Source: Candidatus Electronema aureum
GTDB taxonomy: Bacteria; Desulfobacterota; Desulfobulbia; Desulfobulbales; Desulfobulbaceae
Assembly: GCA_004284765.1 (NCBI GenBank)
Contig: NQJD01000020.1
Location: 1-32,000, forward strand
Direction of reading: 5' to 3'
Length of the DNA stretch: 32,000 nucleotides
Shown here in pieces: positions 2,635 through 16,086 of this stretch; the stretch's first letter is position 1; every line of letters begins with the position of its first letter. The position numbers and the translations under genes were made by a program. A model generated the notes under the pieces. The model had not been told where the DNA came from and made no database searches. It saw nothing but the letters and a program-made list of their open reading frames with translations.

Positions 2635-3603
2635 TCAACTGAGGTAGCGGTGGTATGTTAGCGGCAATATGTGTTCGCCTGCCGCTACTGTGCAGTTGTG
2701 TAATACGCTGTGCGCCCCGATCAGCGCACCAACCCCGATTTCGCATCGTCCGCTGATCTGTACTCCGGCGTGAATGATCGTATCTTGGCCGATGCTGCTT
2801 TCCGGCGAAACCAGCACCGTTTCCGGCGAATAAATAGTCACGCCTGCAAGCATCAGCTCTCGGTTACGGCGCATTTGCAGCTCGGTGTGCGCCTGCGCCA
2901 ACTCGACCCCCGAATTCACGCCCAGCACATCTATGGCTGGATTGTGAACGAATTTACCCACGCGACAACCTTGTTGGACTGCAATCCCGACGATATCAGT
3001 TAGATAGACCTCGCCTTGGCTGTTGTTGGTGCCTACTTGCCGCAGGGCCGAGAAGAGAAAGTCCGCCTCAGCTAAATAAATCCCAGCGTTGATCTCTCGA
3101 ATAGCCCGCTGCGTCTCATCTGCTTCTTTTTGCTCAACAATGCGCAGAACGTGACCGCTCGCATTGCTGATAATTCTGCCGTAGCCAAAGGGATTGTCTA
3201 ATTCGGTGGTCATCAGGGTAAGCGTGGCGGCTTGTTCCTGATGCTGCCGAATCATAGCCTGTAAGGTTTCCGGGCGGATGAGCGGGGTGTCGCCGCAGAG
3301 AATCATAATCAGTTCAGCAGAATGGCAAGCTGGCTCGGCACAGAGTACCGCATGGCCGGTACCGAGCTGTTCCTCCTGAATCACCGGAGTGATACGATAT
3401 GCTTTCAGTGAAGCAAGCACTTGCTTCCGTTGATGGCCAACAATCACGGCAGGTTGCTCAATTCCCGTGGCTGCAACTGTATCCAAAACATGGTGCAGCA
3501 TAGGTTTGAAGAACAGCTCGTGCAGAACCTTGGCCTTGGCCGATTTCATCCGTGTGCCTTTGCCTGCGGCAAGGATGATGGCAGAGATATTAGGAGTATT
3601 CAT
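2635..3603 (-). CDS. glmU: GlmU-like sugar-1-phosphate nucleotidyltransferase, short form lacking most of the acetyltransferase left-handed beta-helix
   Basis: N-terminus has AIILAAGKGTRMKS (the LAAGxGTRM pyrophosphorylase signature), QLGTGHAV, CGDTPLI, GYGRI. Only about 60 aa of hexapeptide-repeat region follow before the stop. Full-length GlmU is roughly 130 aa longer. No continuation in other frames, since the edd 3' end starts 18 bp away. Confidence 0.75.
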   Translation of the reverse strand: MNTPNISAIILAAGKGTRMKSAKAKVLHELFFKPMLHHVLDTVAATGIEQPAVIVGHQRKQVLASLKAYRITPVIQEEQLGTGHAVLCAEPACHSAELIMILCGDTPLIRPETLQAMIRQHQEQAATLTLMTTELDNPFGYGRIISNASGHVLRIVEQKEADETQRAIREINAGIYLAEADFLFSALRQVGTNNSQGEVYLTDIVGIAVQQGCRVGKFVHNPAIDVLGVNSGVELAQAHTELQMRRNRELMLAGVTIYSPETVLVSPESSIGQDTIIHAGVQISGRCEIGVGALIGAHSVLHNCTVAAGEHILPLTYHRYLS

Positions 3604-3660
3604 GAAGGATTAAGTGACGGCTTTAATTCTTTGTTATTTGATTAATAATGCTGTCTATGC

Positions 3661-5352
3661 TCACAGCATCTCCTTCGCTTTCTCAATGCCCTCAGCCAAG
3701 GTACGCGAGAACTCTACCTTGCCAATTTTCTTCCGCAGCCCAGCCTTGCGCAGCTTGAGAAGCATCCGGGGTTCTAAGTGGTTAATCACTAAGCCCACCC
3801 CATTCTTCTCTAAATTGCCACTGATGGATTCCATTGCCACTATTGCGCTCATGTCGATCATATTCACCTTGGTCATGTCGAGAATCACCACGCGCACATC
3901 CGGGCTGACCGAGGTGATGTTCTTCATCGACTTCTGAGCCGAGCCGAAGAAGAGCGGCCCGTTGATATCGTAGATGGAAATTGCTGAAGGCAGCTCGCCG
4001 TAGCCATGATCGCGGCTTTCTAACTTGGTGGCGGTGGTCAGACTAATGCTTCGTTGAATAAAGAGGATAGCGGCCAAGCTCATACCCACGCCTACGGCAA
4101 GTGCCATGTCAAACAGCACCGTCAGCGAAAAGCAGATCAGCAACACAGCGATATCACTGCGAGGCGCAATCCTGAGTGTACGAATGAAGTGCTTGGCCTC
4201 GCTCATATTCCACGCGACGATAAACAGCAAGGCTGCCATGGAAGCCATCGGAATGTAGGATAGCAGCGGCGTGATCAGCAGAATCGACAGCAGGATGAAC
4301 AAACTGTGAATAATCGAGGCAACTGGAGTCCGTCCGCCTGCCTTAATGTTAGTTGCTGTTCGAGCAATGGCAGCCGTGGCAGGGATGCCGCCGAAGAAGG
4401 GTGCGATAATATTGCCGATGCCTTGGCCGATCAGCTCGTCGTTGGAATCATGCTTGGTGCCGCTCAAACCATCGGCAATCACCGAGCAGAGCAGCGAAGT
4501 GATCGCGGCCAGCACAGCAATCGCAATGGCAGACGGGAACAAGGTCTGAATCATCTGCCAGCTCAGGCCGACCGGACTGCCGTCTGCGCCGGGCAGATTC
4601 CAAGGCCAGTTCACGTTAGGCAGGACAGGTGGGATGCCGTTGCCAGTGATACCGTTCAAGTCGTAATGAAAGCGACTACCGATAGTGGCGGCGGCAAATT
4701 CTGGGCTGATTCTGCTGCCTGCCCACGCTGCGAATGAGCCGAGCAGCACTGCCACCAAATGTCCCGGCACTTTCGAGCGGAGCTTCGGCCAGAGGATCAG
4801 CACGATCAATGTTAGCATACCAATCAAGAAATCTGCAAGGGTAGCAGTTGGCACAGCGCGAAGGATTGCGCCTACTTGCTCTAAATAATGCCCTTCTACC
4901 GCCTCCACGCTGAGACCAAAGAAGTCTTTGATCTGGAAGGTAGCAATGATCACCGCAATACCAGAGGTAAAGCCAACCGTGACCGGATACGGTACCACTT
5001 CAATCAGCTTGCCGAGCTTGGCTATCCCCATGATGATGAGAATCACGCCTGCCATCATCCCGCTCACTAACAGCCCACCAATGCCGAATTTTTGAACAAT
5101 GGGCAGTAGCACAACCACAAAGGCAGCAGTGGGGCCAGAAATATTGATGGTCGAACCGCCGCTGAGGGATATAACGATACCAGCAACCAAGGCCGTGTAG
5201 AGACCATGCTGCGGGGCAACACCGCTGGCAATGGCAAAGGCCATCGACAGGGGCAGGGCGATGATGCCGATGGTCAGTCCAGATAAGATATCAGCCTGAA
5301 GGGTAGAGAAGGAAGGCTTTGCTTTGACAGTTTGCGTGAGAGCGGAAAACAT
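3661..5352 (-). CDS. SulP-family anion permease with C-terminal STAS domain
   Basis: 563 aa and polytopic. The N-terminus LQADILSGLTIGIIALPLSMAFAIASGV is typical of SulP. The C-terminus has a STAS-like segment (YDINGPLFFGSAQK...VVILDMTKVNMIDMSA). AAGGA SD lies 7 nt upstream of the ATG at 5352. Confidence 0.85.
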   Translation of the reverse strand: MFSALTQTVKAKPSFSTLQADILSGLTIGIIALPLSMAFAIASGVAPQHGLYTALVAGIVISLSGGSTINISGPTAAFVVVLLPIVQKFGIGGLLVSGMMAGVILIIMGIAKLGKLIEVVPYPVTVGFTSGIAVIIATFQIKDFFGLSVEAVEGHYLEQVGAILRAVPTATLADFLIGMLTLIVLILWPKLRSKVPGHLVAVLLGSFAAWAGSRISPEFAAATIGSRFHYDLNGITGNGIPPVLPNVNWPWNLPGADGSPVGLSWQMIQTLFPSAIAIAVLAAITSLLCSVIADGLSGTKHDSNDELIGQGIGNIIAPFFGGIPATAAIARTATNIKAGGRTPVASIIHSLFILLSILLITPLLSYIPMASMAALLFIVAWNMSEAKHFIRTLRIAPRSDIAVLLICFSLTVLFDMALAVGVGMSLAAILFIQRSISLTTATKLESRDHGYGELPSAISIYDINGPLFFGSAQKSMKNITSVSPDVRVVILDMTKVNMIDMSAIVAMESISGNLEKNGVGLVINHLEPRMLLKLRKAGLRKKIGKVEFSRTLAEGIEKAKEML

Positions 5353-5441
5353 GTGGTATCCTTGTGCGATGTTGCGGTGATGAATGCGCGGCAGTCTGAC
5401 CTGTCGGAATACTCCGACATGGCAGGAAAAGGAGAAAAGAA

Positions 5442-5450
5442 TGCTATAAT
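5442..5450 (+). promoter_or_regulatory. candidate extended -10 promoter (TGcTATAAT) for lysC
   Basis: Exact TATAAT at 5445..5450 with TG two bases upstream and no good -35. It would give a leader of about 260 nt before lysC. It sits inside the palindrome GCTATAATAGC. Confidence 0.3.
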
Positions 5451-5715
5451 AGCGCGGCCCATGATACAGGAAAATGAACCTGTAAAGTGAATTGTGAAGA
5501 GAGAAGTAACTTTCAAGAGTGCTGCTTCAGCACAGCACGAATTGCGCTTGCAAAATTGCCCTGCCGCCTTTAAAGTAGTCCCCTTTTGGGGAACTTTGAC
5601 AACCGCAACCGAATGAATGCCTCCACCTGTTCTTTCAAGAGGTTGCGGAATGTTCTCGTGGAGAGAATAGCTGCCCCTCCGCGTTCTCCTCTAACCTCAA
5701 CCAACCGGAACAGCT

Positions 5716-6951
5716 ATGGCACTGATCGTGCAGAAATTCGGCGGAACCTCGGTGGGTTCCACGGAAAAGATAAAGAATGTGGCCAAGCGAGTGCTGCGGT
5801 ATCAGCAGCAAGGCCACCAAATGGTGGTGGTGCTGTCTGCCATGTCTGGTCAGACCGACAAACTGCTGGGTTTCGCGGCGGATATGCAGCGACTGCCTGA
5901 CCTCCGCGAGACCGACATGCTCTTAGCCACCGGCGAGCAGATCACTATTGCCCTCTTGGCAATGGCGATCAAGGAAGCAGGCAGTGATGCTGTCTCGTTG
6001 CTTGGCGATCAGGTGCGGATTATCACGGATGCTATGCACACCAAGGCCCGCATTCGTGAGATCGAGACCGAGCTGATCAAGAAGCACCTTGACGCAGGCC
6101 GGGTGGTGGTCGTGGCAGGCTTCCAAGGTGTAACGACCGAGGGCGACCTCACCACGCTTGGCCGGGGTGGTTCAGATACCACTGCCGTTGCTCTCGCTGC
6201 CGCGCTCAAGGCAGACAGCTGCGAGATTTACACCGATGTTGAGGGAGTGTACACCACCGACCCCAACATCTGCGCTGAGGCGCGCAAGATTGACATGATC
6301 ACCTACGACGAAATGCTGGAATTAGCCAGCCTCGGAGCCAAGGTATTAGAAATCCGCTCAGTGGGTTTAGCCAAACGCTACAAGGTTCCACTGCATGTTC
6401 GTTCAACCTTTTCAGAAAACGAAGGCACTTGGGTTGTCGAGGAGGATAGACTTATGGAGTCCATGCTGGTCTCAGGTATTACCTACAGCAGAAAGGAAGC
6501 GCGTATCACCATCAGAAATGTACCTGATCAACCGGGTGTTGCTTCTAAGATATTCCTGCCGATCTCCAATGCAGGTGTTCTGGTTGATATGATCATCCAG
6601 AATACGCGGGAAGGGCAGATGACTGACATCACCTTTACCGTGCTGCGGGCTGATTATCTGCGGACGATGGAGATTCTGAAGGAGACGGTCAAGGATATCG
6701 GCGCAGAGTCAGTGAACGGCGACGAGTCTATTGCCAAGGTATCCATTGTTGGCGTGGGAATGCGCAATCATTCTGGTATCGCCACTACCATGTTTCAGGT
6801 GATGGCGCATGAGGGCATCAACATCATGATGATCTCTACCTCAGAGATCAAGGTTTCTTGTATCATTGCTGAGAAATACACCGAGCTGGCTGTGCGCACT
6901 CTGCACACAGCCTTTGCCTTGGACAAAAGCAAGCAGCCTGTGGAAGAGTAG
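5716..6951 (+). CDS. lysC: aspartate kinase (monofunctional, two C-terminal ACT domains)
   Basis: MALIVQKFGGTSVGS..VVVLSAMSGQTDKLL, GRGGSDTTAVALAAAL, YTDVEGVYTTDP. The C-terminal ACT-like repeats include AKVSIVGVGM. Confidence 0.92.
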   Translation: MALIVQKFGGTSVGSTEKIKNVAKRVLRYQQQGHQMVVVLSAMSGQTDKLLGFAADMQRLPDLRETDMLLATGEQITIALLAMAIKEAGSDAVSLLGDQVRIITDAMHTKARIREIETELIKKHLDAGRVVVVAGFQGVTTEGDLTTLGRGGSDTTAVALAAALKADSCEIYTDVEGVYTTDPNICAEARKIDMITYDEMLELASLGAKVLEIRSVGLAKRYKVPLHVRSTFSENEGTWVVEEDRLMESMLVSGITYSRKEARITIRNVPDQPGVASKIFLPISNAGVLVDMIIQNTREGQMTDITFTVLRADYLRTMEILKETVKDIGAESVNGDESIAKVSIVGVGMRNHSGIATTMFQVMAHEGINIMMISTSEIKVSCIIAEKYTELAVRTLHTAFALDKSKQPVEE

Positions 6952-7012: not shown

Positions 7013-8275
7013 TCAACACAGCCCGCTCACTGCCTCTCCCCGCACCAGATCATCATAGCACTCGCGCTGACGGATCACCTCAAAGCTGCTGCCGCTCACC
7101 AGCACTTCCGCCACTCTGGGCCGGGAGTTGTAGGTGGAGGACATGGAGAAGCCATAGGCCCCGCTGCTCATCACCGCTAAGAGTTCGCCCGCCTGCACCT
7201 CCGGCATCAGTCTGTCCTTAGCGAGGAAGTCGCCGCTCTCACAGATTGGGCCGACCACATCTGCCTGCTGCTTCTCTGCCGCCGCTGTTTCGCGCACCGG
7301 CAGTATCTCGTGGAACGCACCGTACAACGAAGGCCGCGCCAAGTCGTTCATGGCCGCATCAACCACAATGAACCGCTTCTCGCTGCCGCTGTTGCGCTTG
7401 GTGTATTGCACCTCGGTGACAAGTATGCCTGCATTGCCCACCAGCACCCGGCCAGGCTCCAGAATTAGGGTGCAGTCCATGCCTGCCAGTTCGGCCCGCA
7501 CTGCCGCCGCGTAATCAATCGGATGCGGCGGCTGCTCGTCGTCGTAGGGAATGCCGATGCCGCCGCCCATGTCCACGTATTTGATCTGAATGCCTTCCTG
7601 ATTGAGCTTGGCGATGAAGGCTTTCACCTTGCGCAGGGCCTCAATGAACGGCTCAATCTGGGTGAGCTGCGAGCCGATGTGGCAGCTCACACCGACGATC
7701 TCGATATGCGCCATCGTCTTGGCCCGCAGATACTCCTGCAAGGCCTCAGTCACCGGGATGCCGAACTTGTTCTTCGCCAGGCCGGTGGAGATGTAGGCGT
7801 GCGTCTTCGGGTCAACGTCCGGGTTGATGCGGAAGGCGATGCGGGCGCGGGTCTTCAGCTCCGCCGCGACCTCGTTCAGCCGGTCTAACTCCTGCGGCGA
7901 CTCGACATTGAACATCAGGATGCCCGCCTGCAAGGCCTCAGCCAGCTCGCGGCGGCTCTTGCCTACGCCAGAGTAGATGATCCGCTGCGGCTCAACCCCG
8001 GCCTTGAGCGCCCGGAACAGCTCGCCGCCGGAGACTATGTCTGCGCCGCCGCCCAGCTTGGCGAAGAGGTTGAGAATGGCGATGTTCGAGCAGGCCTTGA
8101 CCGCAAAGCAGGTCTGGTGGGCCATGCCCGCAAAGCCGGACTCGAAGGCGGTGAAATGCCGCCTGAGGGTGGCGGAGCTGTAGAGGTAGAAAGGGGTGCC
8201 GACCTGCGCGGCAATGTCCTTAATCCGCACGTCCTCGCAGCAGAGTTCGCCGTTCTGATAGGTGAAGTGGTTCAT
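7013..8275 (-). CDS. lysA: diaminopimelate decarboxylase
   Basis: Typical LysA: FYLYS, CFAVKACSN (PLP lysine), HIGSQ, DMGGGIGI, EPGR, CESGD, SSGAYG. Start moved to the ATG at 8275 (MNHFTYQNGEL..). The 44 upstream codons of the track ORF run through repeat DNA. Confidence 0.92.
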   Translation of the reverse strand: MNHFTYQNGELCCEDVRIKDIAAQVGTPFYLYSSATLRRHFTAFESGFAGMAHQTCFAVKACSNIAILNLFAKLGGGADIVSGGELFRALKAGVEPQRIIYSGVGKSRRELAEALQAGILMFNVESPQELDRLNEVAAELKTRARIAFRINPDVDPKTHAYISTGLAKNKFGIPVTEALQEYLRAKTMAHIEIVGVSCHIGSQLTQIEPFIEALRKVKAFIAKLNQEGIQIKYVDMGGGIGIPYDDEQPPHPIDYAAAVRAELAGMDCTLILEPGRVLVGNAGILVTEVQYTKRNSGSEKRFIVVDAAMNDLARPSLYGAFHEILPVRETAAAEKQQADVVGPICESGDFLAKDRLMPEVQAGELLAVMSSGAYGFSMSSTYNSRPRVAEVLVSGSSFEVIRQRECYDDLVRGEAVSGLC

Positions 8276-8315
8276 GTTGTTCCAATGTATGAAGAATATT
8301 GACAGGCGCGGTGTG

Positions 8316-8522
8316 CTGCCCGATGGACTGCGGCTGCCGCGCTGCCCGCGCCAGAGTGCAAAGATTGGTTGCACCAGAGTACAACGGTGGATACTTCTCT
8401 CGTGCAACGGAGGCTACTTCGAGAGTACAACGGATCGTTTCACGAGAGTGCAATGGCTGCTTTCACTCTCGTGCAAGTTGCGGGCGGACTATCCTTGCCG
8501 CGCTGCCCGCAGCGGAGTGAGG
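8316..8522. repeat. phase-locked 23-nt tandem array (six clear units at 8339..8476 plus degenerate flanking units; 161-bp higher-order period)
   Basis: Plus-strand units each end in GTRCAA at 8361, 8384, 8407, 8430, 8453 and 8476. Their cores are ccagagtgcaa / ccagagtacaa / ctctcgtgcaa / cgagagtacaa / cgagagtgcaa / ctctcgtgcaa. GGACT-N5-TGCCGCGCTGCCCGC occurs at 8325..8349 and 8486..8510, exactly 7 x 23 = 161 bp apart. Confidence 0.85.
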
Positions 8523-8548
8523 CCGAACGCCCCTGCGCCGTCCCGCCA

Positions 8549-8627
8549 TTGTAGGGGCGATCCTTGTGATCGCCCAATGTGCCGCCATATCGCAACCATG
8601 CGGGGCGAATACAAGATTCGCCCCTAC
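8549..8627. repeat. REP/REPIN-like inverted doublet of GTAG-headed GC-rich hairpins
   Basis: Left copy: GTAG-GGGCGATC-cttgt-GATCGCCC (8551..8575). Right copy on the opposite strand: GTAG-GGGGCGAAT-cttgt-ATTCGCCCC (8602..8627). The heads point outward. The right head supplies the TAG stop of the NLR-like CDS. Confidence 0.75.
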
Positions 8628-10693
8628 CGGCCCTGCCGCGCTGCCTGCAACTGTGCTAAACCTTTGCGGCATGTCTCCAAGGAAGGATGGCCGATGACTT
8701 CCATAATCTGTACGGCCTGGCTGACATGTTCCTCTGCCGGTGCAAGGTTACATCGATCTTCGTAGGTAAGTGCTATCCACCAGCGCGTTACTGCTTCGAG
8801 GAACCTGTCGCCAATATCCAGCCATATCGCCAAGGCTTGTTCATAATACTCCAATGCTTTGGCAGGATTGCCCTGCGCACGGTAAACCACGCCAATGTTG
8901 GTCATGGCTTGTCCCTCTAATATCTTATCCCCAGCCTCCCGGCTGATATGCAGGCACTGCTCATAATATCGCAAGGCTGTCTCGTTATCGCCTTGTTCCC
9001 TATAAAGTATGCCGATATTATTCAGCGTACTGCCTTCCCCCTTCCGGTCGCCAATCTCTCGCTGTATGCTCAGGCTCTGTTGATACTGCTGCAAGGTCAG
9101 CTCATATTTGCCCTGTTGTTGGTAAATCGCGGCGATGTTGTTCAGGGTTACGCCTTCTTCCTGCCTGTCGCCCAACTCGCGGTCTATCGGTAGGCATTGC
9201 TCAAAGTAGGCAATTGCTTTCTCATGCTTCCCGCGCCGCCAGCAGGTGTAGCCTAGGGTACATAGGCACCAGCCTTCATCTTTGCGGTTGCCTGCTTGCT
9301 GGGCGGCTGTCAGGTTCATCTCTACAGCAGCCAGCTTCTCTGCCCAATGCCCCTGCCGGTCAAGGTAGATGTACGTTGCCCCGACCAAGCGGCTCACCTC
9401 CTGCCACAGCTTGCTGGCAAGGCAGCTCTCTATCAGCCGCAGGCAGTGCGCCCGTTCACCATCAAGGCGGGCATATCCCGGCAGGCCAGCCTTGCTCTGC
9501 GCCTCGCACCACTCTATATAATAGGCAGCCAGCCGCTCAAGGCTCTCCTTGCTCATCGCCAGCTCGGTGCGGGCGTAAGTATGCACCAGCGCGTGGCTTA
9601 TCTGCCAGCGTTCATCGAGCTTCTCATCCTGTTTCTTATCGTGCTTATCCAGCAGGCCGTAGTTGACTAACTCACCCAGGGCCTCACTGCTGCGCAGCTC
9701 AAGGTCATCTTGGTCTTCGTCCTCCTTGGACAACACTGCCATGACCGGCTCAAGACTGATGGACGCAAAGGCAAGAATACCCACCAACCGCAGCACTTGC
9801 ACCGCATCAGTGCTTATCTGGGCTACGCTGCGCCGCAGCAGCAAAGCTGCGTTCTCCTGCTGATGCGCCTCCTTTCCCAGCTTCCTGAAAGGCTCCTTCG
9901 CCAGCCACTTCAAGTACGTTGCTGCGCTCTCTTCCGTGCTGCTCACATAGTTGCCCGCAATGCGCAGAGCAACCGGCCAGCCACCGAGTATCTTGCAGAT
10001 GCCCACGACGCTCTCGTCATCACCCGCAACCTTGCTGTACTCCCGGAAGACCTGTGCTGCGGCCTCATCTTCCAGCGGTTTAATATTCAAACGCACACCC
10101 TGCGCATCCTTCCTGCTGCGAGTAGTGATCAGCACACCGCACGAGCTACGCAGCCGCAGCACTGCTGGGAGGTCTTTCGCCTCTTCTGTACCATCAAGGA
10201 AGAGCAAAGCCCTCTTGCCTGCGAGCACCTGCCGCACTGCGCTCTCAAGATCCGCCTTTGCCTCGATCTGAAAGGCTTCGCAAATGGCTCGCAGGGCAGT
10301 CTCCGTTTTAGGATGTCCATAGAAGCTATGGAAGACAATCCCATCCGGGAAGCGGGCTGCGTCCAGCTTACTCACTGCCTGCGCCGCCAGCGCGCTCTTG
10401 CCCATGCCGCCTGGCCCGCATACTGCTACGACCTTGCCCGGATGCAGCCTGTCGTTCAGCCAGACAAGCTCCTCCTCGCGGTGGAGAAAGCAGGGTTCAG
10501 GCGCAGGGGGCTGGCGGGGAATGGGAGGCGGCGCAGGCTGGCTGCCATAGTTGTTGATCTGACATGCTATCGCTCCATCGCCTTGCGCGATATTCTGCGT
10601 TCCGCCGTGGCTGTCAAAGCTGTTGCTCTGCACATCCCCGATGCCGGAGAGGACGTTGCCGTCGCCGTCTATATGCTGGTTGACGGTGCTCAT
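8624..10693 (-). CDS. STAND NTPase, NB-ARC domain plus C-terminal TPR array (NLR-like), with a G/N/Q-rich N-terminal motif and a Pro-rich linker
   Basis: Walker A VCGPGGMGKSALA, Walker B ALLFLDGTEE, the NB-ARC-type GGWPVALRIAG motif, then at least five TPR units (TLNNIAAIYQQQGKYELTLQQYQQSL.., STLNNIGILYREQGDNETALRYYEQCL.., AMTNIGVVYRAQGNPAKALEYYEQAL..). N-terminal 50 aa: STVNQHIDGDGNVLSGIGDVQSNSFDSHGGTQNIAQGDGAIACQINNYG, followed by QPAPPPIPRQPPAPEP. Confidence 0.85.
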   Translation of the reverse strand: MSTVNQHIDGDGNVLSGIGDVQSNSFDSHGGTQNIAQGDGAIACQINNYGSQPAPPPIPRQPPAPEPCFLHREEELVWLNDRLHPGKVVAVCGPGGMGKSALAAQAVSKLDAARFPDGIVFHSFYGHPKTETALRAICEAFQIEAKADLESAVRQVLAGKRALLFLDGTEEAKDLPAVLRLRSSCGVLITTRSRKDAQGVRLNIKPLEDEAAAQVFREYSKVAGDDESVVGICKILGGWPVALRIAGNYVSSTEESAATYLKWLAKEPFRKLGKEAHQQENAALLLRRSVAQISTDAVQVLRLVGILAFASISLEPVMAVLSKEDEDQDDLELRSSEALGELVNYGLLDKHDKKQDEKLDERWQISHALVHTYARTELAMSKESLERLAAYYIEWCEAQSKAGLPGYARLDGERAHCLRLIESCLASKLWQEVSRLVGATYIYLDRQGHWAEKLAAVEMNLTAAQQAGNRKDEGWCLCTLGYTCWRRGKHEKAIAYFEQCLPIDRELGDRQEEGVTLNNIAAIYQQQGKYELTLQQYQQSLSIQREIGDRKGEGSTLNNIGILYREQGDNETALRYYEQCLHISREAGDKILEGQAMTNIGVVYRAQGNPAKALEYYEQALAIWLDIGDRFLEAVTRWWIALTYEDRCNLAPAEEHVSQAVQIMEVIGHPSLETCRKGLAQLQAARQGR

Positions 10694-10705
10694 TTTATCT
10701 GCCTG

Positions 10706-11164
10706 CTATCTTGCAATCTCCTCGCTCCGCTCCATCTTGCCTTCACAGTTGAAACACTCTGTTTTCCCGTCCGTGCTGACTATCCACACTTCCTTGGCCC
10801 CTTTGGCAAGATACAGCTCAATCTTTTCCTCCATCTCGCCTGCGGAGTTTGACGGCGACATGATTTCAACACAGATTTCTGGGGCGCGTTTGTATGGAGT
10901 TTCATAGCTGTAGCGGGCAAAGAAATCATCCGAGGCCCACGCGACATCAGCAACTTTGACTCCCTGCGATGTCTGAATGGAGCATTGCATAATTACCTTA
11001 CCGCGCCCTTTCTTCCCTTCTTTGATCTGCGCACCGATCTCAAACTGAATATGGCCGTGGCTGTTGCTTGCAGGACTCATCAAAATCTTGCCCCACTTGT
11101 TCAGCTCAATCTTGAACGGAAGATTTTGCAGAAACGGATTACTGATCACTCCGGCCCAGTCCAT
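10706..11164 (-). CDS. Uma2-family (PD-(D/E)xK restriction-endonuclease-fold) protein
   Basis: The C-terminal half APEICVEIMSPSNSAGEMEEKIELYLAKGAKEVWIVSTDG matches the Uma2 pattern (P-D/E-h-h-h-E-h-x-S-P-S.., K..x..Y...G..E.W.V). Upstream acidic residue in VADVAWASDD. Strong AAGGAG SD 6 nt upstream of the ATG. Only 12 bp separate it from the downstream STAND gene. Confidence 0.65.
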   Translation of the reverse strand: MDWAGVISNPFLQNLPFKIELNKWGKILMSPASNSHGHIQFEIGAQIKEGKKGRGKVIMQCSIQTSQGVKVADVAWASDDFFARYSYETPYKRAPEICVEIMSPSNSAGEMEEKIELYLAKGAKEVWIVSTDGKTECFNCEGKMERSEEIAR

Positions 11165-11182
11165 GAATCACTCCTTTTGCTG

Positions 11183-11211
11183 AAAAAAAGGGCCACAGCG
11201 GACTGTGACCC
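11183..11211 (-). terminator. rho-independent terminator closing the argG-argH-lipoprotein unit
   Basis: The minus strand reads GGGTCACAG-tccg-CTGTGGCCC followed by TTTTTTT: a 9-bp stem with one G-U pair. It lies 30 nt after the lipoprotein stop and immediately before the SD of the Uma2 gene. Confidence 0.7.
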
Positions 11212-11240
11212 TTGCCAGCTTCCTGTATCGTGGGCAGAAC

Positions 11241-12041
11241 TTACCGTAGGCTTGCCTCGGCAGATGGCTTGCTTTCGTTGGGCGGGCTGCTCTGGTCAAA
11301 GCTGCTGACCGAGTAGAAAACCTTGCTGCCTTTCGCGGGCGGGTTCTTGTCCTCGTACAGGTTGTACGGCTGCTTAATTTCGCCAAGTAGCTCCGGCTTG
11401 CCATCACCAATGCGCCGATATACCTTATGCCCGACTAAGTCCTTGTCCTTGCCTGCGTCCCAGAACACCTTGACTGAGGAAGCAGTGCGGGCAGCAGTGA
11501 CATTGCTCGGCGGCTCCGGCGGGGTATGGTCAGCAACGGCGGCAGGGGCTGCTGCCTGTTTTGGCATGGCTGACGGCTTCTCCCAGATAAAAGAGATCAG
11601 GTTAGAGTCGTCAGACTCAGAGAGCCAGCCGCTCTTGCTCCGCAGCTTAAAGAAATACTTGCGGCCTGCTTGCATCGGAGCGTCTTCCCAGCTCCCCTGC
11701 CTGCTACCTTTGTCCGGCAGGCTGCCGCCCGCCACAGTGATTGGCGTGGTAAAGGGGATCGGACAGGTGTCGCAGTACGACTCTATCGGCACTTCTGCCC
11801 GGTAGAGCTGGAAGGAGTCAAGCTCGGTGATCTTCTCACCGGAAGCCGTGCGGTTGGGCCATGTCCAGTGAAGCACTGCCCCGTTGCTGGTCAGCTCGTA
11901 GCTGAGGTCAGTCACAGGCCGGGGAGTCATGGCCGAGGGAGCAACCGGCAGGGTCTTGTAGCCGCAGCCGGTCAAGCCGCTGGTCAGGAGGAGCAGGGCA
12001 GCCGCAAGGCCGCGAAAAACAGTCGGTGCAATCTTCATCAT
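11241..12041 (-). CDS. lipoprotein with two fibronectin-type-III-like segments
   Basis: Signal peptide plus lipobox MMKIAPTVFRGLAAALLLLTSGLTG|C. FN3-like strands VTDLSYELTSNGAVLHWTWP and PSNVTAARTASSVKVFWDAG..GHKVYRR. Its ATG overlaps the argH stop (ATGA). Confidence 0.65.
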   Translation of the reverse strand: MMKIAPTVFRGLAAALLLLTSGLTGCGYKTLPVAPSAMTPRPVTDLSYELTSNGAVLHWTWPNRTASGEKITELDSFQLYRAEVPIESYCDTCPIPFTTPITVAGGSLPDKGSRQGSWEDAPMQAGRKYFFKLRSKSGWLSESDDSNLISFIWEKPSAMPKQAAAPAAVADHTPPEPPSNVTAARTASSVKVFWDAGKDKDLVGHKVYRRIGDGKPELLGEIKQPYNLYEDKNPPAKGSKVFYSVSSFDQSSPPNESKPSAEASLR

Positions 12042-13455: not shown

Positions 13456-14652
<1,197 letters not shown>

Positions 14653-14747
14653 GATGGTGTTTAGGTGGTTCAATCTACGCCACGCCGCCTGAGGGCGGGC
14701 GACACGATGATGCGCAGGAAGGCTTAAAACTGCATAGTTTATCAAGC

Positions 14748-14776
14748 AGATTAGACAGCAAGGGGTGTTCTGTCAA
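14748..14776 (-). promoter_or_regulatory. candidate sigma70 promoter facing argG (TTGACA-N17-TAATCT)
   Basis: Minus strand: TTGACA (14776..14771), 17-nt spacer gaacaccccttgctgtc, TAATCT (14753..14748). It lies between the orphan gene stop and the argG start, about 95 nt upstream of the argG ATG. Confidence 0.35.
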
Positions 14777-14854
14777 GGATTTTGCGGCGAGATATACAAC
14801 ACCACCTTGACCAATAGTCCGCCGTAGTTGATGACAGTGTGCTTGATGAAAATG

Positions 14855-15910
14855 TTACGGGTACGATGAAGAGTTGGAAGCACGACTTCCTTCAAGATGT
14901 TTTGGATCGACATCGCTGGGTATTTGAATTCGATAATCATTAATCTTGACGTTGCTGCCCCATCGATCATCTTTGTTTTCAAAAAGTTTCCAAGGAAAAA
15001 GAAACGCATCGACTACCTTCCCCTCTCCAACTGTCAGAACACGTAAGTCAAACATACAATCATTATCTGGGTGATGGTTCTTTATCGCAGAGAGAATGGC
15101 AGCAAGAGTTGGCTTGATAACTGTAGGATCAGGATTCGTAGAATACGCTCGTACTGTTTGGCAGATTGGTTGCCGTTGGCCAAGTGATGACAAGCCATGC
15201 AGTCTGGTTAAGCAGTCCAAATTATGGCGCAATGTTCTCTCATGATATTGATCATCAAGAGACCATATTCTATTGACATAATTGAGAACGCTTACAATGG
15301 TGAAAGCCAGCTTGCTCAACTCAACACGACTAATCTCGAATGGATGATTAACGCAACCACCCTTTACTCTTGAGCTTACCCGGAGGACACCATCGTTAGA
15401 TGTAAAGTGTCTGTCATGAATTATTGTTCCACGAAACGGTTCTAGAATCTTGTACAAACATATAAGCCTCTCCTTCAACCAAGGTCTTGACTCGATTATG
15501 TGGGGAAAGGTTGGTGATGGAGAGCTTTTCAGACTCTTGATCTTCTCCTCAAACCGGAACGTCTTTTTGCAACCGTTCTGTTCAAGAATCCACTCAATGA
15601 GCATATCGAGCAGCTTGAATGTCGTGATAAAAACAAGTGGTGCTCCTGCAGTTAGGAAGCCTGCTTGCCAAGGAATACCTCCTCCTATAACAAAATTCAC
15701 TTCACAATAATTGACAAAGTTGACCTCCGAGCTATCAACTGGACAGATAAATACATCAGGAATCTTGCGGAACCATGGGGTTTCAATGAATTCAGCAATG
15801 TTATAGACAGCTTCTAAAAACCACGCTTCGTACTCCGTCCGTTCATTAAGAAGACGAAGTGCAGATTTGTCATAGTGTGTCATTTTCTTGTTTCCATTCT
15901 TTTCGTGCAA
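14855..15910 (-). CDS. orphan hypothetical protein (351 aa), AT-rich, inserted between argF and argG
   Basis: Uninterrupted 351-codon ORF. TTG start with GGAGG 6 nt upstream (ggaggtgaagaTTG); an alternative ATG lies at codon 10. The protein motif EVNFV occurs twice (EVNFVNYCEVNFV), and all five codons differ at the third position (GAG GTC AAC TTT GTC vs GAA GTG AAT TTT GTT), which argues for real coding under selection. No family recognised. Confidence 0.6.
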   Translation of the reverse strand: MHEKNGNKKMTHYDKSALRLLNERTEYEAWFLEAVYNIAEFIETPWFRKIPDVFICPVDSSEVNFVNYCEVNFVIGGGIPWQAGFLTAGAPLVFITTFKLLDMLIEWILEQNGCKKTFRFEEKIKSLKSSPSPTFPHIIESRPWLKERLICLYKILEPFRGTIIHDRHFTSNDGVLRVSSRVKGGCVNHPFEISRVELSKLAFTIVSVLNYVNRIWSLDDQYHERTLRHNLDCLTRLHGLSSLGQRQPICQTVRAYSTNPDPTVIKPTLAAILSAIKNHHPDNDCMFDLRVLTVGEGKVVDAFLFPWKLFENKDDRWGSNVKINDYRIQIPSDVDPKHLEGSRASNSSSYP

Positions 15911-16086
15911 TCTTCACCTCCAGCACATATCCGCCACCCGTCCGCAATGCTGTCATGTCATGGCGTGGCCAATAATGTGGCGTAATCGTTGCCCCTGATG
16001 CTTTAAAAAAACCGTTAGGCCGTACCGCCGGGTGGTGCTTGCGAAAAAGAAGTGATTGGCGGCACGGTCAGTGTGAGCGATGGAGA

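Follow-up and report, generated by a model that had tools for sequence, protein, structure and literature searches.

The 32-kb window, i.e., the whole stretch of DNA analysed here, belongs to Candidatus Electronema aureum, a cable bacterium. The window carries the gene string argF-[islet]-argG-argH-lipoprotein-[islet]-lysA, a conserved gene order with variable slots, and one of these slots is occupied by a Uma2 gene and a gene for an NLR-like STAND ATPase. The insertion into the arg-lys string described in the initial annotation is borne out. The slot contains the following features.

11183..11213, minus strand: terminator-like hairpin (11 pairs, loop of 4) and T-run, closing the argG-argH-lipoprotein unit
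11171..11176, minus strand: Shine-Dalgarno sequence AAGGAG, 6 nt ahead of the Uma2 ATG at 11164
10706..11164, minus strand: Uma2 gene, 152 aa; open reading frame, apparently intact; Pfam Uma2
8624..10693, minus strand: NB-ARC/TPR STAND (NLR-like) ATPase gene, 689 aa; open reading frame; Pfam NB-ARC and TPR
8285..8623, no strand assigned: repeat DNA travelling with the STAND gene, between its stop codon and lysA

Both open reading frames were confirmed on the minus strand with the 12-nt gap noted before. The hairpin, at 11213..11188, has six G-C among its 11 pairs, and its T-run then extends to 11183. By itself it is statistically unremarkable, given that the region has 6 terminator-like matches versus 3.6 in shuffles; it is credible as a terminator because it sits directly after the lipoprotein stop codon (11241). 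The AAGGAG follows just behind, as had been reported, leaving no room for a promoter between the T-run and 11176..11171. DNA homology to the Uma2 gene in other loci starts at this Shine-Dalgarno sequence (window 11174-11180). At the other end, the STAND gene runs into the described repeat DNA, which is made up of 23-nt periodic hairpin units (8353-8476) and REP-like GC hairpins (8551-8627) and matches no Rfam family. The repeats are found after the STAND gene in Electronema sp. V4 and after a paralogue at locus L102; they are absent at L100, where Uma2 abuts lysA.

The STAND ATPase and its N-terminal motif

The NB-ARC/TPR architecture first read from the translation was supported by Pfam matches to NB-ARC (PF00931, residues 84-289, E = 5.2e-11, 42.7 bits vs a cut-off of 23.5) and TPR_12 (E = 1.6e-41). 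The AF2 model has a pLDDT of 84.8 overall, falling below 50 for residues 1-55, and shows paired helices from 382 to 686. Its best full-length fold match is 6mfv (PH0952 STAND-TPR), followed by Apaf-1, CED-4 and NRC1. The elements of the protein are listed below, with invariance judged over 34 homologues.

10631..10672, minus strand: first G/D/N-rich segment, residues 8-21 (IDGDGNVLSGIGDV), weakly like motif B
10544..10630, minus strand: motif A, residues 22-50 (QSNSFDSHGGTQNIAQGDGAIACQINNYG); family consensus NxFxSxGGxQNIAQGDxAIGKQxN
10394..10417, minus strand: Walker A GPGGMGKS, residues 93-100, from the translation; G96, G98 and K99 invariant
10190..10207, minus strand: Walker B LLFLDG, residues 163-168, from the translation; L163, D167 and G168 invariant
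9965..9985, minus strand: GGWPVAL, residues 237-243, a GxP/GLPL-type NB-ARC motif, from the translation; G238 and P240 invariant
8636..9550, minus strand: TPR helical-repeat sensor array, residues 382-686 (Pfam TPR_12/TPR_1/TPR_10; AF2)

Homologues number 411 at E <= 1e-10, and those with names are nearly all from Electronema or Electrothrix; the family is expanded in cable bacteria, with many paralogues per genome. Some homologues have a caspase (P0105, P0120), a HetE-N-like domain (L047, L074, L078) or a TM helix fused at the N-terminus.

The STAND gene is hypervariable and evolves like an immune receptor. Between the window and V4 its dN is 0.244, as compared with 0.025-0.133 for the neighbouring genes at comparable dS, and exceeds the values for argH and lysA 5-8-fold. 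Between V4 and Electronema sp. VV, identity is 62% for the STAND proteins, against 96-97% for argH and lysA. A mosaic pattern is seen in sp. PJ, whose copy has 86-98% identity to the window over residues 100-450 and 56-68% over residues 451-689, and the TPR array is the most divergent part of the protein between alleles.

The N-terminus had been taken for a short low-complexity motif. What is found instead is a conserved G/N/Q-rich motif (N 16%, G 16%, Q 13%, L 0.1%) that lies within the low-pLDDT segment and is common to TIR and HetE-N-like proteins. Of 1.84 billion proteins searched with a profile of this motif A, 100 matched at E <= 1e-3, including TIR_2 (P0296, P0298), HetE-N (P0329, 28.7 bits vs a cut-off of 25), NACHT (P0268), TM and TPR-only proteins. 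All five motif-A proteins with organism names trace to cable bacteria or to a MAG named Desulfobulbus; P0335, among these five, is from Electronema sp. VV. Paralogues carry a different type, motif B (GDGNxFSGxGDVHV), which residues 8-21 of the window copy resemble weakly in the alignment; against the motif-B HMM, the window copy does not reach E <= 1 and the V4 orthologue gives 0.12. Motif B matches the published BASS1 with scores of 63-77, and the pair motifs of relatives match BASS1, BASS3 and BASS9 with scores of 63-89; in both cases none of 200 shuffles scored as high. Motif A had no match when set against one-sixth of the published BASS sequences (score 29, lower than shuffles), and its amyloid nature therefore rests on analogy. 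By that analogy, motif A is probably a receptor-side homotypic, amyloid-type signalling motif.

Two other readings of the protein were weighed. It is unlikely, if well worth considering, that the N-terminal motif is a non-amyloid adaptor or targeting tag, either a localisation peptide or a homotypic module like the effector-associated domains, which serve as a model for a non-fibrillar reading (Kaur et al. 2020, eLife, PMC7159879). Such a tag would fit the position of motif A at the extreme N-terminus of many different architectures, the lack of a match in the sampled BASS families, and the N-terminal motif of one class of partner (the H-domain proteins, below) where Bell/BASS effectors have theirs at the C-terminus. 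It fits less well with a composition of 45% N+G+Q and almost no L or P, which is the bias reported for BASS motifs, with the matches to BASS1, BASS3 and BASS9 of sister motif types that occupy this position elsewhere in the family, or with the Bell/HetE-N-like partners, whose C-terminal motif is exactly as in published pairs. That the STAND protein is a housekeeping regulatory or signal-transduction ATPase of the AfsR or MalT kind, controlling lysA or the arg genes, seems to us hardly credible, even though AfsR is the best PDB sequence match to its NB-ARC part (E = 1.4e-30) and its gene immediately precedes lysA on the same strand. No DNA-binding domain was found in the protein, the gene is missing from the same slot at L100, and paralogues are many; moreover, its dN exceeds that of argH and lysA as given above, its alleles differ by 38% between near-identical strains, and its N-terminal motif recurs in TIR and HetE-N-like proteins.

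Upstream neighbours of the STAND genes

A census of 78 STAND-ascertained relatives, each with at least 600 nt of upstream sequence, showed what precedes these genes: a new ~95-aa helical domain (H-domain) in 16 copies, a Bell/HetE-N-like partner or fusion in 13, a small motif ORF in 2, Uma2 in 3 (all Electronema), and nothing recognisable in 44. The motif type of the upstream partner is that of the STAND gene beside it, and the two co-vary over 13 loci. The mean local motif score is 80 for cognate and 26 for non-cognate pairs, the best-scoring STAND is the own neighbour for 11 of the 13 partners, and the observed cognate total was reached by none of 100,000 permutations. The motif is C-terminal in Bell/HetE-N-like partners, which start with a hydrophobic helix bearing an acidic residue at position 2-3 and have a Pfam HetE-N match, and N-terminal in H-domain partners. 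Uma2 scored against its own STAND N-terminus gives 23, which is background, with no common motif. A motif-A effector was found neither in the 32-kb window nor beside the Electronema copies, which weighs against the mechanism proposed below.

The PD-(D/E)xK-fold assignment of the Uma2 protein holds. It matches PF05685 (E = 7.4e-18, 65 bits vs a cut-off of 27) and the PADLOC defence candidate PDC-S03 (E = 2.6e-11), and its AF2 model (pLDDT 81.5) has the DUF820 structures 1wdj (TT1808), 6okh, 9y1l and 3ot2 (Ava_3926) as top Foldseek matches (probability 1.00). The presence of the conserved D, E and K core residues, which had been left to a proper alignment, is confirmed: across 20 homologues, D73, E96, E100 and K114 are invariant. 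What is lacking is the canonical Lys two positions past the beta-3 acid (E100-I-M), as in the aligned 9y1l. Unlike these restriction-endonuclease-like DUF820 proteins, the window protein belongs to a compact 152-aa subfamily, whose genes typically lie just downstream of a co-directional gene at an islet edge. We know of no biochemical function for any member.

The initial annotation had proposed a split sensor/effector system with the nuclease supplied in trans by Uma2, and had named a lack of conserved adjacency among homologues as evidence against it. Adjacency was found in only 3 of the 78 relatives, two at a syntenic locus common to sp. V4 and sp. VV and one in a paralogous block (L102). 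Uma2 lies upstream of none of the 75 evaluated copies outside these three, and no fused Uma2 domain occurs among the 120 STAND homologues listed. Elsewhere Uma2 is found on its own: relatives 75-88% identical stand alone in toxin-antitoxin islets, and solo genes occur at L009, L011 and L093. We conclude that the NLR-like ATPase probably does not have the Uma2 nuclease as its partner; Uma2 would instead be a stand-alone PD-(D/E)xK-fold gene that lacks its own promoter. Counting against this, the Uma2-STAND order is kept in three Electronema genomes despite STAND turnover, and a conserved effector with a diversifying sensor would look the same.

A co-transcribed, Electronema-restricted two-gene system, in which the NLR oligomer activates the Uma2 nuclease without a common motif, is distinctly improbable in our judgement. 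In its favour, three Electronema genomes have the two genes at the same locus, separated by 12 nt (window, V4) or 31 nt (VV) that hold no terminator, and Uma2 is conserved (93-95% aa) while STAND diverges (58-65%), as expected for an effector and its sensor. Furthermore, the paralogous block, in an Electronema genome that already holds the syntenic pair, again has Uma2 upstream of STAND, and Uma2 matches a PADLOC defence candidate. A distance of 1.3-2.1 kb separates Uma2 or a relative from a STAND gene at L096/L097 (2.1 kb, in a different context, at L097) and from a TIR-motif-A gene at L103, which points to some non-random association at the islet level. However, the three genomes are congeneric and their flanking genes 90-97% identical, so that the common order is not independent evidence. 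The paralogous Uma2 at L102 is cut off at residue 117 and mutated at invariant positions (E96K, S103L) while its adjoining STAND ORF is intact, and L100/L101 have Uma2 directly ahead of lysA with no STAND gene. The 0 of 75 outside the three Electronema cases and the lack of a fusion among the listed homologues weigh in the same direction, as does the lack of a motif in Uma2 when the STAND family has well-supported motif-matched partners. We give still less credence to the idea that Uma2 is a nuclease gene of a selfish or mobile kind, one that flags insertion hot spots or contributes to their formation, with conflict cargo gathering beside it. Uma2 does sit at the edge between housekeeping genes and variable cargo (toxin-antitoxin pairs, STAND, TIR) in the window and at L100, L097, L009 and L103; its subfamily includes proteins with 67-73% identity that are named as Gammaproteobacteria, Thiocystis violacea and Desulfobulbus; its dS versus V4 is 0.18, below the flanks (0.35-0.53); and inter-locus homology starts at the Shine-Dalgarno sequence. 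Against this, no phage copies were found, plasmid matches were few, and defence-island clustering alone could give the same pattern.

Proposed mechanism and comparison with known systems

The reading we favour, with moderate confidence, is that the small variable islet separating lysA from the argG-argH-lipoprotein unit holds two conflict-type genes that are independent of each other, the STAND protein being an orphan NLR of amyloid type. By analogy with known receptors, its rapidly diversifying TPR array would bind a foreign or danger ligand, and nucleotide-dependent NB-ARC oligomerisation would gather the disordered N-terminal 55 residues. Motif A might then nucleate a homotypic, probably cross-beta (amyloid-type) assembly, which would template the same motif on HetE-N/Bell-like membrane-targeting helical proteins, ~95-aa helical-domain proteins, TM mini-proteins or TIR proteins. 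The affected cell in the filament would likely die. With no cognate neighbour, the window copy would either act in trans on a motif-A protein encoded elsewhere or be an orphan.

The NB-ARC core, winged helix and repeat sensor are shared with the NB-ARC/AP-ATPase STANDs of solved structure, namely PH0952 (6mfv; aligned over 666 columns, TM 0.57-0.61), AfsR (the closest in NB-ARC sequence), Apaf-1, CED-4 and the plant NRC NLRs. Unlike these proteins, the window protein has no CARD, CC or DNA-binding N-terminal domain, but a disordered 55-residue segment with a motif. Like the Avs antiviral STAND NTPases, it joins a STAND ATPase to a C-terminal helical-repeat sensor and shows conflict-type evolution. 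Nevertheless, it matches no PADLOC Avs model, solely the generic TPR model PDLC01169; Avs3 ranks only 40th by fold (TM 0.21); and a fused N-terminal enzymatic effector is lacking.

A close parallel is with the Bell/NLR pairs of BASS1-10, for which the effector/NLR pair logic has been described and amyloid formation shown for BASS1 and BASS3 (Dyrka et al. 2020, bioRxiv 10.1101/2020.01.06.895854). Like these, the cable-bacterial NB-ARC/TPR receptors have a ~25-aa G/N/Q-rich motif ahead of NB-ARC, some motif types match BASS1, BASS3 and BASS9, the neighbouring gene in relatives is collinear and encodes a small helical protein with the matching C-terminal motif, and the host is a filamentous multicellular bacterium. 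The differences are that the window STAND has no adjacent effector, that the sampled BASS families include no match to its motif A, and that the second, H-domain class of partner has its motif at the N-terminus. The mechanism proposed here follows the signalling logic of the amyloid-based Bab/Agp abortive-infection system of E. coli, for which an antiphage role has been demonstrated (Ibarlosa et al. 2024, bioRxiv 10.1101/2024.11.07.622273); the cable-bacterial family is not known to have a phage phenotype. BASS motifs were reported mainly from Actinobacteria and Cyanobacteria, with some in Archaea, and the text of Dyrka et al. (10.1101/2020.01.06.895854) contains 'Desulfo' and 'Deltaproteobacteria' 0 times each and never names the cable-bacterial lineage (Desulfobulbaceae).

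The gene pair and its setting

As the initial annotation had it, the two CDSs lie 12 nt apart on the minus strand, and the signals placed ahead of the first one, an AAGGAG SD right after a terminator hairpin, were both found. The features concerned are the following:

11213..11188, minus strand: terminator-like hairpin and T-run, 3′ of the stop codon of a 266-aa lipoprotein-like gene
11176..11171, minus strand: AAGGAG SD, 6 nt ahead of the Uma2 ATG
10706..11164, minus strand: Uma2 ORF, 152 aa
8624..10693, minus strand: STAND ORF, 689 aa

The neighbours in the window are housekeeping genes (aspartate kinase, lysA, argH, argG and OTCase). The reading we favour for Uma2 is that of a separate gene without its own promoter, expressed via read-through; genes of the 152-aa Uma2 subfamily usually lie 13–183 nt 3′ of a co-directional gene.

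The repeat DNA noted earlier between the STAND gene and lysA fills 8285-8623, with TTGCACGAGAG/CTCTCGTGCAA hairpin units at a period of 23 nt, along with REP-like GC hairpins. Like repeats occur in Electronema sp. V4 (L002 10215-10429) and in a second E. aureum block (L102 10010-10228), only 3′ of the STAND gene and its paralogue, and are absent where Uma2 abuts lysA; the repeat DNA seems to travel together with the STAND gene. An Rfam search over 7900-11400 returned nothing credible at E ≤ 1, and the repeat DNA is therefore not a known riboswitch or sRNA.

The arg string has a second variable islet, since the gap between the OTCase gene and argG differs between the window and its relatives. 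In the window the gap holds a 351-aa ORF (14855-15910, minus strand) with no match in Pfam, PADLOC or NCBIfam, surrounded by a low-GC patch (~14500-16000; GC 0.44–0.46 vs ~0.60 in the flanks); in Electronema sp. V4 and sp. VV it is filled by another gene, of 607–608 aa (DUF7380 + EMARD_N).

The PD-(D/E)xK fold assigned to Uma2 stands: the Pfam profile PF05685 matches at E = 7.4e-18 (65.1 bits vs a cut-off of 27), and the AF2 model (pLDDT 81.5) retrieves the DUF820 structures 1wdj, 6okh, 9y1l and 3ot2 in Foldseek with E = 3e-8 to 1e-7. Among 20 homologues there is no variation at the candidate catalytic residues D73 (beta-2), E96 and E100 (beta-3) and K114 (in the helix after it), and the gene therefore looks intact; there is no Lys at +2, the position of the canonical (D/E)xK Lys. 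The subfamily has 2643 database relatives and is still 67–73% identical in proteins named Gammaproteobacteria, Thiocystis violacea and Desulfobulbus. Searched with Uma2, the phage collection gave no match, and plasmids gave 5 distant matches only, at less than 45% identity. On scoring with a defence tool, as proposed earlier, Uma2 matches the single-gene candidate PDC-S03 in PADLOC; STAND has no Avs match there and hits only a generic TPR model, PDLC01169.

The STAND family, its N-terminal motifs and their partners

Profile search bore out the NB-ARC/TPR architecture, with PF00931 at residues 84–289 (Pfam, E = 5.2e-11, 42.7 bits vs a cut-off of 23.5) and strong TPR matches C-terminal to it; the NCBIfam matches are generic TPR models, all below threshold. 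The Walker A, Walker B and GGWPVAL motifs read from the sequence are all present, and key residues, K99, D167 and P240 among them, are invariant in 34 homologues. Candidates for the MHD-type sensor His of the winged-helix region are the two His of ‘WQISHALVH’, H367 without variation and H371 with a conservation of at least 90%.

Motifs of the window STAND protein and of its family
Walker A: residues 93-100, GPGGMGKS
Walker B: residues 163-168, LLFLDG
GxP (GLPL-type) motif: residues 237-243, GGWPVAL
Motif A: window residues 22-50, consensus NxFxSxGGxQNIAQGDxAIGKQxN
Motif B: GDGNxFSGxGDVHV(EEHHHH)

The AF2 model (pLDDT 84.8) has the tripartite fold of NBD, helical/winged-helix region and C-terminal repeat sensor, with the TPR array at 382-686. 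Its best Foldseek match is the STAND-TPR protein PH0952 (6mfv, E = 7.6e-17), with Apaf-1, CED-4 and the NB-ARC of plant NRC1 next; in sequence, AfsR and Apaf-1 are nearest to the NB-ARC part. There are 411 homologues at E ≤ 1e-10, and the named ones are almost all from Electronema or Electrothrix, several per genome. Some paralogues carry a fused N-terminal caspase or TM helix. In the former (P0105 and P0120, ~1195 aa; L027 3440-7022) an N-terminal, caspase-like Peptidase_C14 domain is joined to the STAND-family protein, and these are all-in-one versions, effector included.

Residues 1–55 of the window protein are disordered in the model (pLDDT below 50). The initial annotation took this N-terminus for a mere short low-complexity stretch; instead, two recurring short modules, motif A and motif B, precede a Pro-rich linker in the aligned family. 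Motif A is a short G/N/Q-rich motif directly N-terminal of the NOD domain and conserved across the family, with 16% N, 16% G and 13% Q (45% N+G+Q) and only 0.1% L and 1.5% P. A sequence search with the 55-aa N-terminus returned a single 59-aa fragment, the word index failing on a motif so short; a motif-A profile run against 1.84 billion representative proteins found 100 proteins at E ≤ 1e-3. Besides STAND proteins, these include TIR_2 proteins (P0296, P0298), small proteins that begin with a helical HetE-N-like domain and have motif A at the C-terminus (P0329, P0339 and P0284; P0329 matches PF20701 with 28.7 bits, cut-off 25), a NACHT protein (P0268), TM mini-proteins (P0271) and motif-TM-helical-TPR proteins without NB-ARC. 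Five of the motif-A proteins carry an organism name: three belong to Electrothrix, one (P0335) to Electronema sp. VV and one to a MAG with the name Desulfobulbus sp. TB.

Two kinds of partner are commonly encoded immediately upstream of the STAND genes of relatives: a ~130-aa protein that joins a short motif at the N-terminus to a helical ‘H-domain’ of ~95 aa with a hydrophobic tail, and a Bell/HetE-N-like protein that bears the motif C-terminally. H-domain proteins, of ~130–180 aa with a conserved core P-(D/E)-R/K-x-K-I, are found directly upstream of STAND, sometimes with a 4-nt overlap (for example L018 4585-4974, L023 535-927, L024 at ~4470-4852, L057 274-672 and L080-L086). The H-domain family has no Pfam or PDB relative, and PDB profile searches with the Bell/HetE-N-like and H-domain alignments gave nothing significant. 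The motif type of a partner tracks that of its own STAND neighbour, such that at L017 the partner carries VDARGAQIGVLGDHAEVKGGIHF and the STAND protein IDARKADIGIIGDKATVEGGLHF, and at L018 they carry MSDIKIIHGDNYENKDGNQYNFKG and MSDAKIISGDNYECSDGDQYNLKD, respectively. Across 13 loci, local alignment scores average 80.3 for cognate vs 26.1 for non-cognate combinations, the own neighbour is the best-matching STAND for 11 of the 13 partners, and the observed cognate sum exceeded those of all 100,000 permutations.

Small ORFs with a TM helix, motif A, motif B and a stop codon lie just upstream of STAND genes at L030 3-248, L032 506-874 and L034 505-840. These ORFs would be TM mini-effectors, or else N-terminal modules that were split off or duplicated. 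We do not take them for mere frameshift fragments of STAND: at L032 the downstream STAND is itself complete at the N-terminus, with TM helix and motif A, though at L030 and L034 the gene may be split.

The effector/NLR pair logic was defined by Dyrka et al. (bioRxiv 10.1101/2020.01.06.895854), where BASS1 and BASS3, two of the published bacterial amyloid signalling sequence families, are reported to form amyloid. We compared the motifs with 152 BASS sequences from the supplement of PMC8086366, ~1/6 of the published set. Motif B matches BASS1 (scores 63–77), the L017/L020 motif type matches BASS3 (up to 74) and the L019/L077 type matches BASS9 (88–89), the top score of each being reached by 0/200 shuffles; a weaker L017 match, of 45, was reached by 2/200. 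Motif A matched no family in this sample, its best score of 29 falling below the shuffles.

For the window STAND gene, no other ORF with motif A or B is present in the 32-kb window or at the loci of V4 (L002), the second E. aureum block (L102) and VV (L104). Trans arrangements do occur, since in Ca. Electrothrix laxa a TIR_2 protein (L103 8001-8804) bears motif A C-terminally, as well as a TM helix, and STAND is missing within 8 kb of its gene. Adjoining gatB, 1.25 kb 3′ of this TIR_2 gene, is a Uma2 gene (L103 10060-10536) with 45% identity to that of the window.

Uma2 beside the STAND family

The proposal under examination was that Uma2 could supply in trans the effector of the STAND sensor, in a split two-gene system; the check suggested was whether it is a conserved neighbour of the ATPase homologues. 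The order argG-argH-lipoprotein-Uma2-STAND-lysA is indeed repeated in Electronema sp. V4 and sp. VV, where 12 and 31 nt separate Uma2 from STAND. As the genomes are of one genus and 90–97% identical in the flanking genes, the shared order reflects shared ancestry and is not independent evidence. The nearest STAND homologue (78% identical, Electronema sp. PJ) follows an aminotransferase gene without Uma2, as do the copy of E. halotolerans and a second paralogue in V4 lack it, and Uma2 is absent from all 80 metagenomic loci with STAND relatives. The census below covers the 78 STAND-ascertained copies having at least 600 nt of upstream sequence.

Upstream neighbour of STAND in the census (copies of 78)
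H-domain partner: 16
Bell/HetE-N-like partner or fusion: 13
Small motif ORF: 2
Uma2: 3 (V4, VV and L102; all Electronema, related by DNA homology)
Nothing recognisable: 44

The third of the Uma2-bearing copies, L102, belongs to a second E. aureum paralogue (P0016) and is by DNA homology a diverged copy of the window block, including the 3′ repeat DNA. Its Uma2 is 93% identical over residues 1–117 and truncated beyond, with E96K and S103L at invariant positions, and adjoins an intact STAND ORF. Solo relatives of Uma2, 75–88% identical, follow dnaK in E. aestuarii (L009) and a nucleotidyltransferase gene at L093, and occur in PIN/Phd toxin-antitoxin islets at L011. At two loci (L100, L101) the arg-lys slot itself reads lipoprotein-Phd-YoeB-111 aa-CHAP-Uma2-lysA, without a STAND gene; the variable piece is therefore the STAND gene with its repeat DNA (~window 8277-10729). 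The cargo upstream of Uma2 in L100, a related metagenomic genome, is a Phd/YoeB toxin-antitoxin pair, the 111-aa ORF and a 519-aa CHAP-domain protein (3180-5987). Uma2 genes (L009, L097, L100, L103 and the window) recur where variable cargo borders on a housekeeping gene (dnaK, lysA, gatB or a phosphoribosyltransferase gene), and DNA homology between Uma2 loci begins at the SD.

That Uma2 is the effector of STAND appears improbable to us. In its favour, three Electronema genomes keep the Uma2–STAND order despite turnover of the sensor, and Uma2 relatives recur near STAND and TIR-motif-A genes. Indeed, the two are found together in islets more often than expected by chance, with some non-random association; at L096/L097 they share one neighbourhood, with 2.1 kb and six small genes between them. 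However, adjacency fails elsewhere, and they are thus not a conserved pair: it amounts to 3 of 78 copies, all from Electronema, at one of which (L102) a decayed Uma2 adjoins an intact STAND gene, and the L100 slot keeps Uma2 without STAND. Neither fusion nor a shared motif links the two, PF05685 being absent among the 120 STAND homologues listed, no extra domain being present among the 120 Uma2 homologues listed, and the local alignment of Uma2 with the window STAND N-terminus scoring at background (23). Other partners of the STAND family, moreover, are well supported, with a matching motif on an adjacent collinear effector gene, and motif co-variation, in 31 of 78 related copies. The Uma2 and NLR pairing is not a new system, and on present evidence it should not be catalogued as a defence system, which spares the cloning of the wrong partner.

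Receptor divergence and comparison with known systems

The STAND gene is the most divergent in the slot. Between V4 and VV, argH and lysA are 96–97% identical and the STAND proteins only 62% (L002 8001-10025 vs L104 6001-8049), and the comparison of the window with V4 gave the following values.

Divergence between the window and V4
argH: dN 0.054, dS 0.48
Lipoprotein: dN 0.133, dS 0.53
Uma2: dN 0.025, dS 0.18
STAND: dN 0.244, dS 0.65
lysA: dN 0.032, dS 0.35

The non-syntenic PJ copy is 86–98% identical to the window protein at residues 100–450 and 56–68% in the TPR array, a mosaic that suggests recombination among paralogues. The arg-lys STAND slot is a hypervariable receptor locus, diverging as one would expect for immunity or allorecognition, and its 62% STAND vs 96–97% flank identity makes it a natural experiment in receptor diversification. 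The dS of Uma2 (window 10706-11164 vs L002 7530-7988), 0.18, is well under the flanking 0.35–0.53; recent exchange or gene conversion among Uma2 copies is possible.

By analogy with NLRs and BASS systems, the TPR array would bind a ligand and the NB-ARC domain would oligomerise, whereupon motif A would nucleate a homotypic, probably cross-beta, assembly; this would template a motif-A effector encoded elsewhere, and the cell would die. On a broader reading, which we offer tentatively and with less than even confidence, motif A might define a many-to-many amyloid-type network specific to cable bacteria, in which orphan hypervariable NLRs activate unlinked TIR, HetE-N/Bell-like, TM mini-protein and ~95-aa helical effectors for programmed cell death or allorecognition in the conductive filament, with a new motif family and an N-terminal/N-terminal pairing geometry. 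Apart from this broader reading, the NLR leads to a testable point, namely that cable bacteria hold a large, fast-evolving NB-ARC/TPR family wired by short matching motifs to TIR, HetE-N/Bell-like and other effectors. The amyloid-signalling NLR paradigm would thereby extend to a lineage whose electron-conducting filament is affected when one of its cells dies. Our literature search found no account of NB-ARC in cable bacteria, of STAND in Electronema or of the string QNIAQG. Reports of amyloid-signalling NLRs are so far mainly from Actinobacteria and Cyanobacteria, with some from Archaea (Dyrka et al., bioRxiv 10.1101/2020.01.06.895854).

Among known systems, Avs proteins usually carry a fused effector at the N-terminus, whereas residues 1–67 of the window STAND hold motifs and a Pro-rich linker only, and the Avs3 structure ranks 40th among its Foldseek matches. 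Motif A has the same composition bias as the BASS motifs (45% N+G+Q, almost no L or P), and the multicellular habit looked for in the host of a BASS-type pair is that of Ca. Electronema aureum, cable bacteria being filamentous and multicellular. Unlike those pairs, in which a motif-bearing effector is adjacent, the window copy has none beside it. The window NLR is probably of the amyloid-signalling bacterial kind, and what is new is the motif family, the partner domain with N-terminal pairing, the orphan (trans) arrangement and, among the papers searched, the host lineage.
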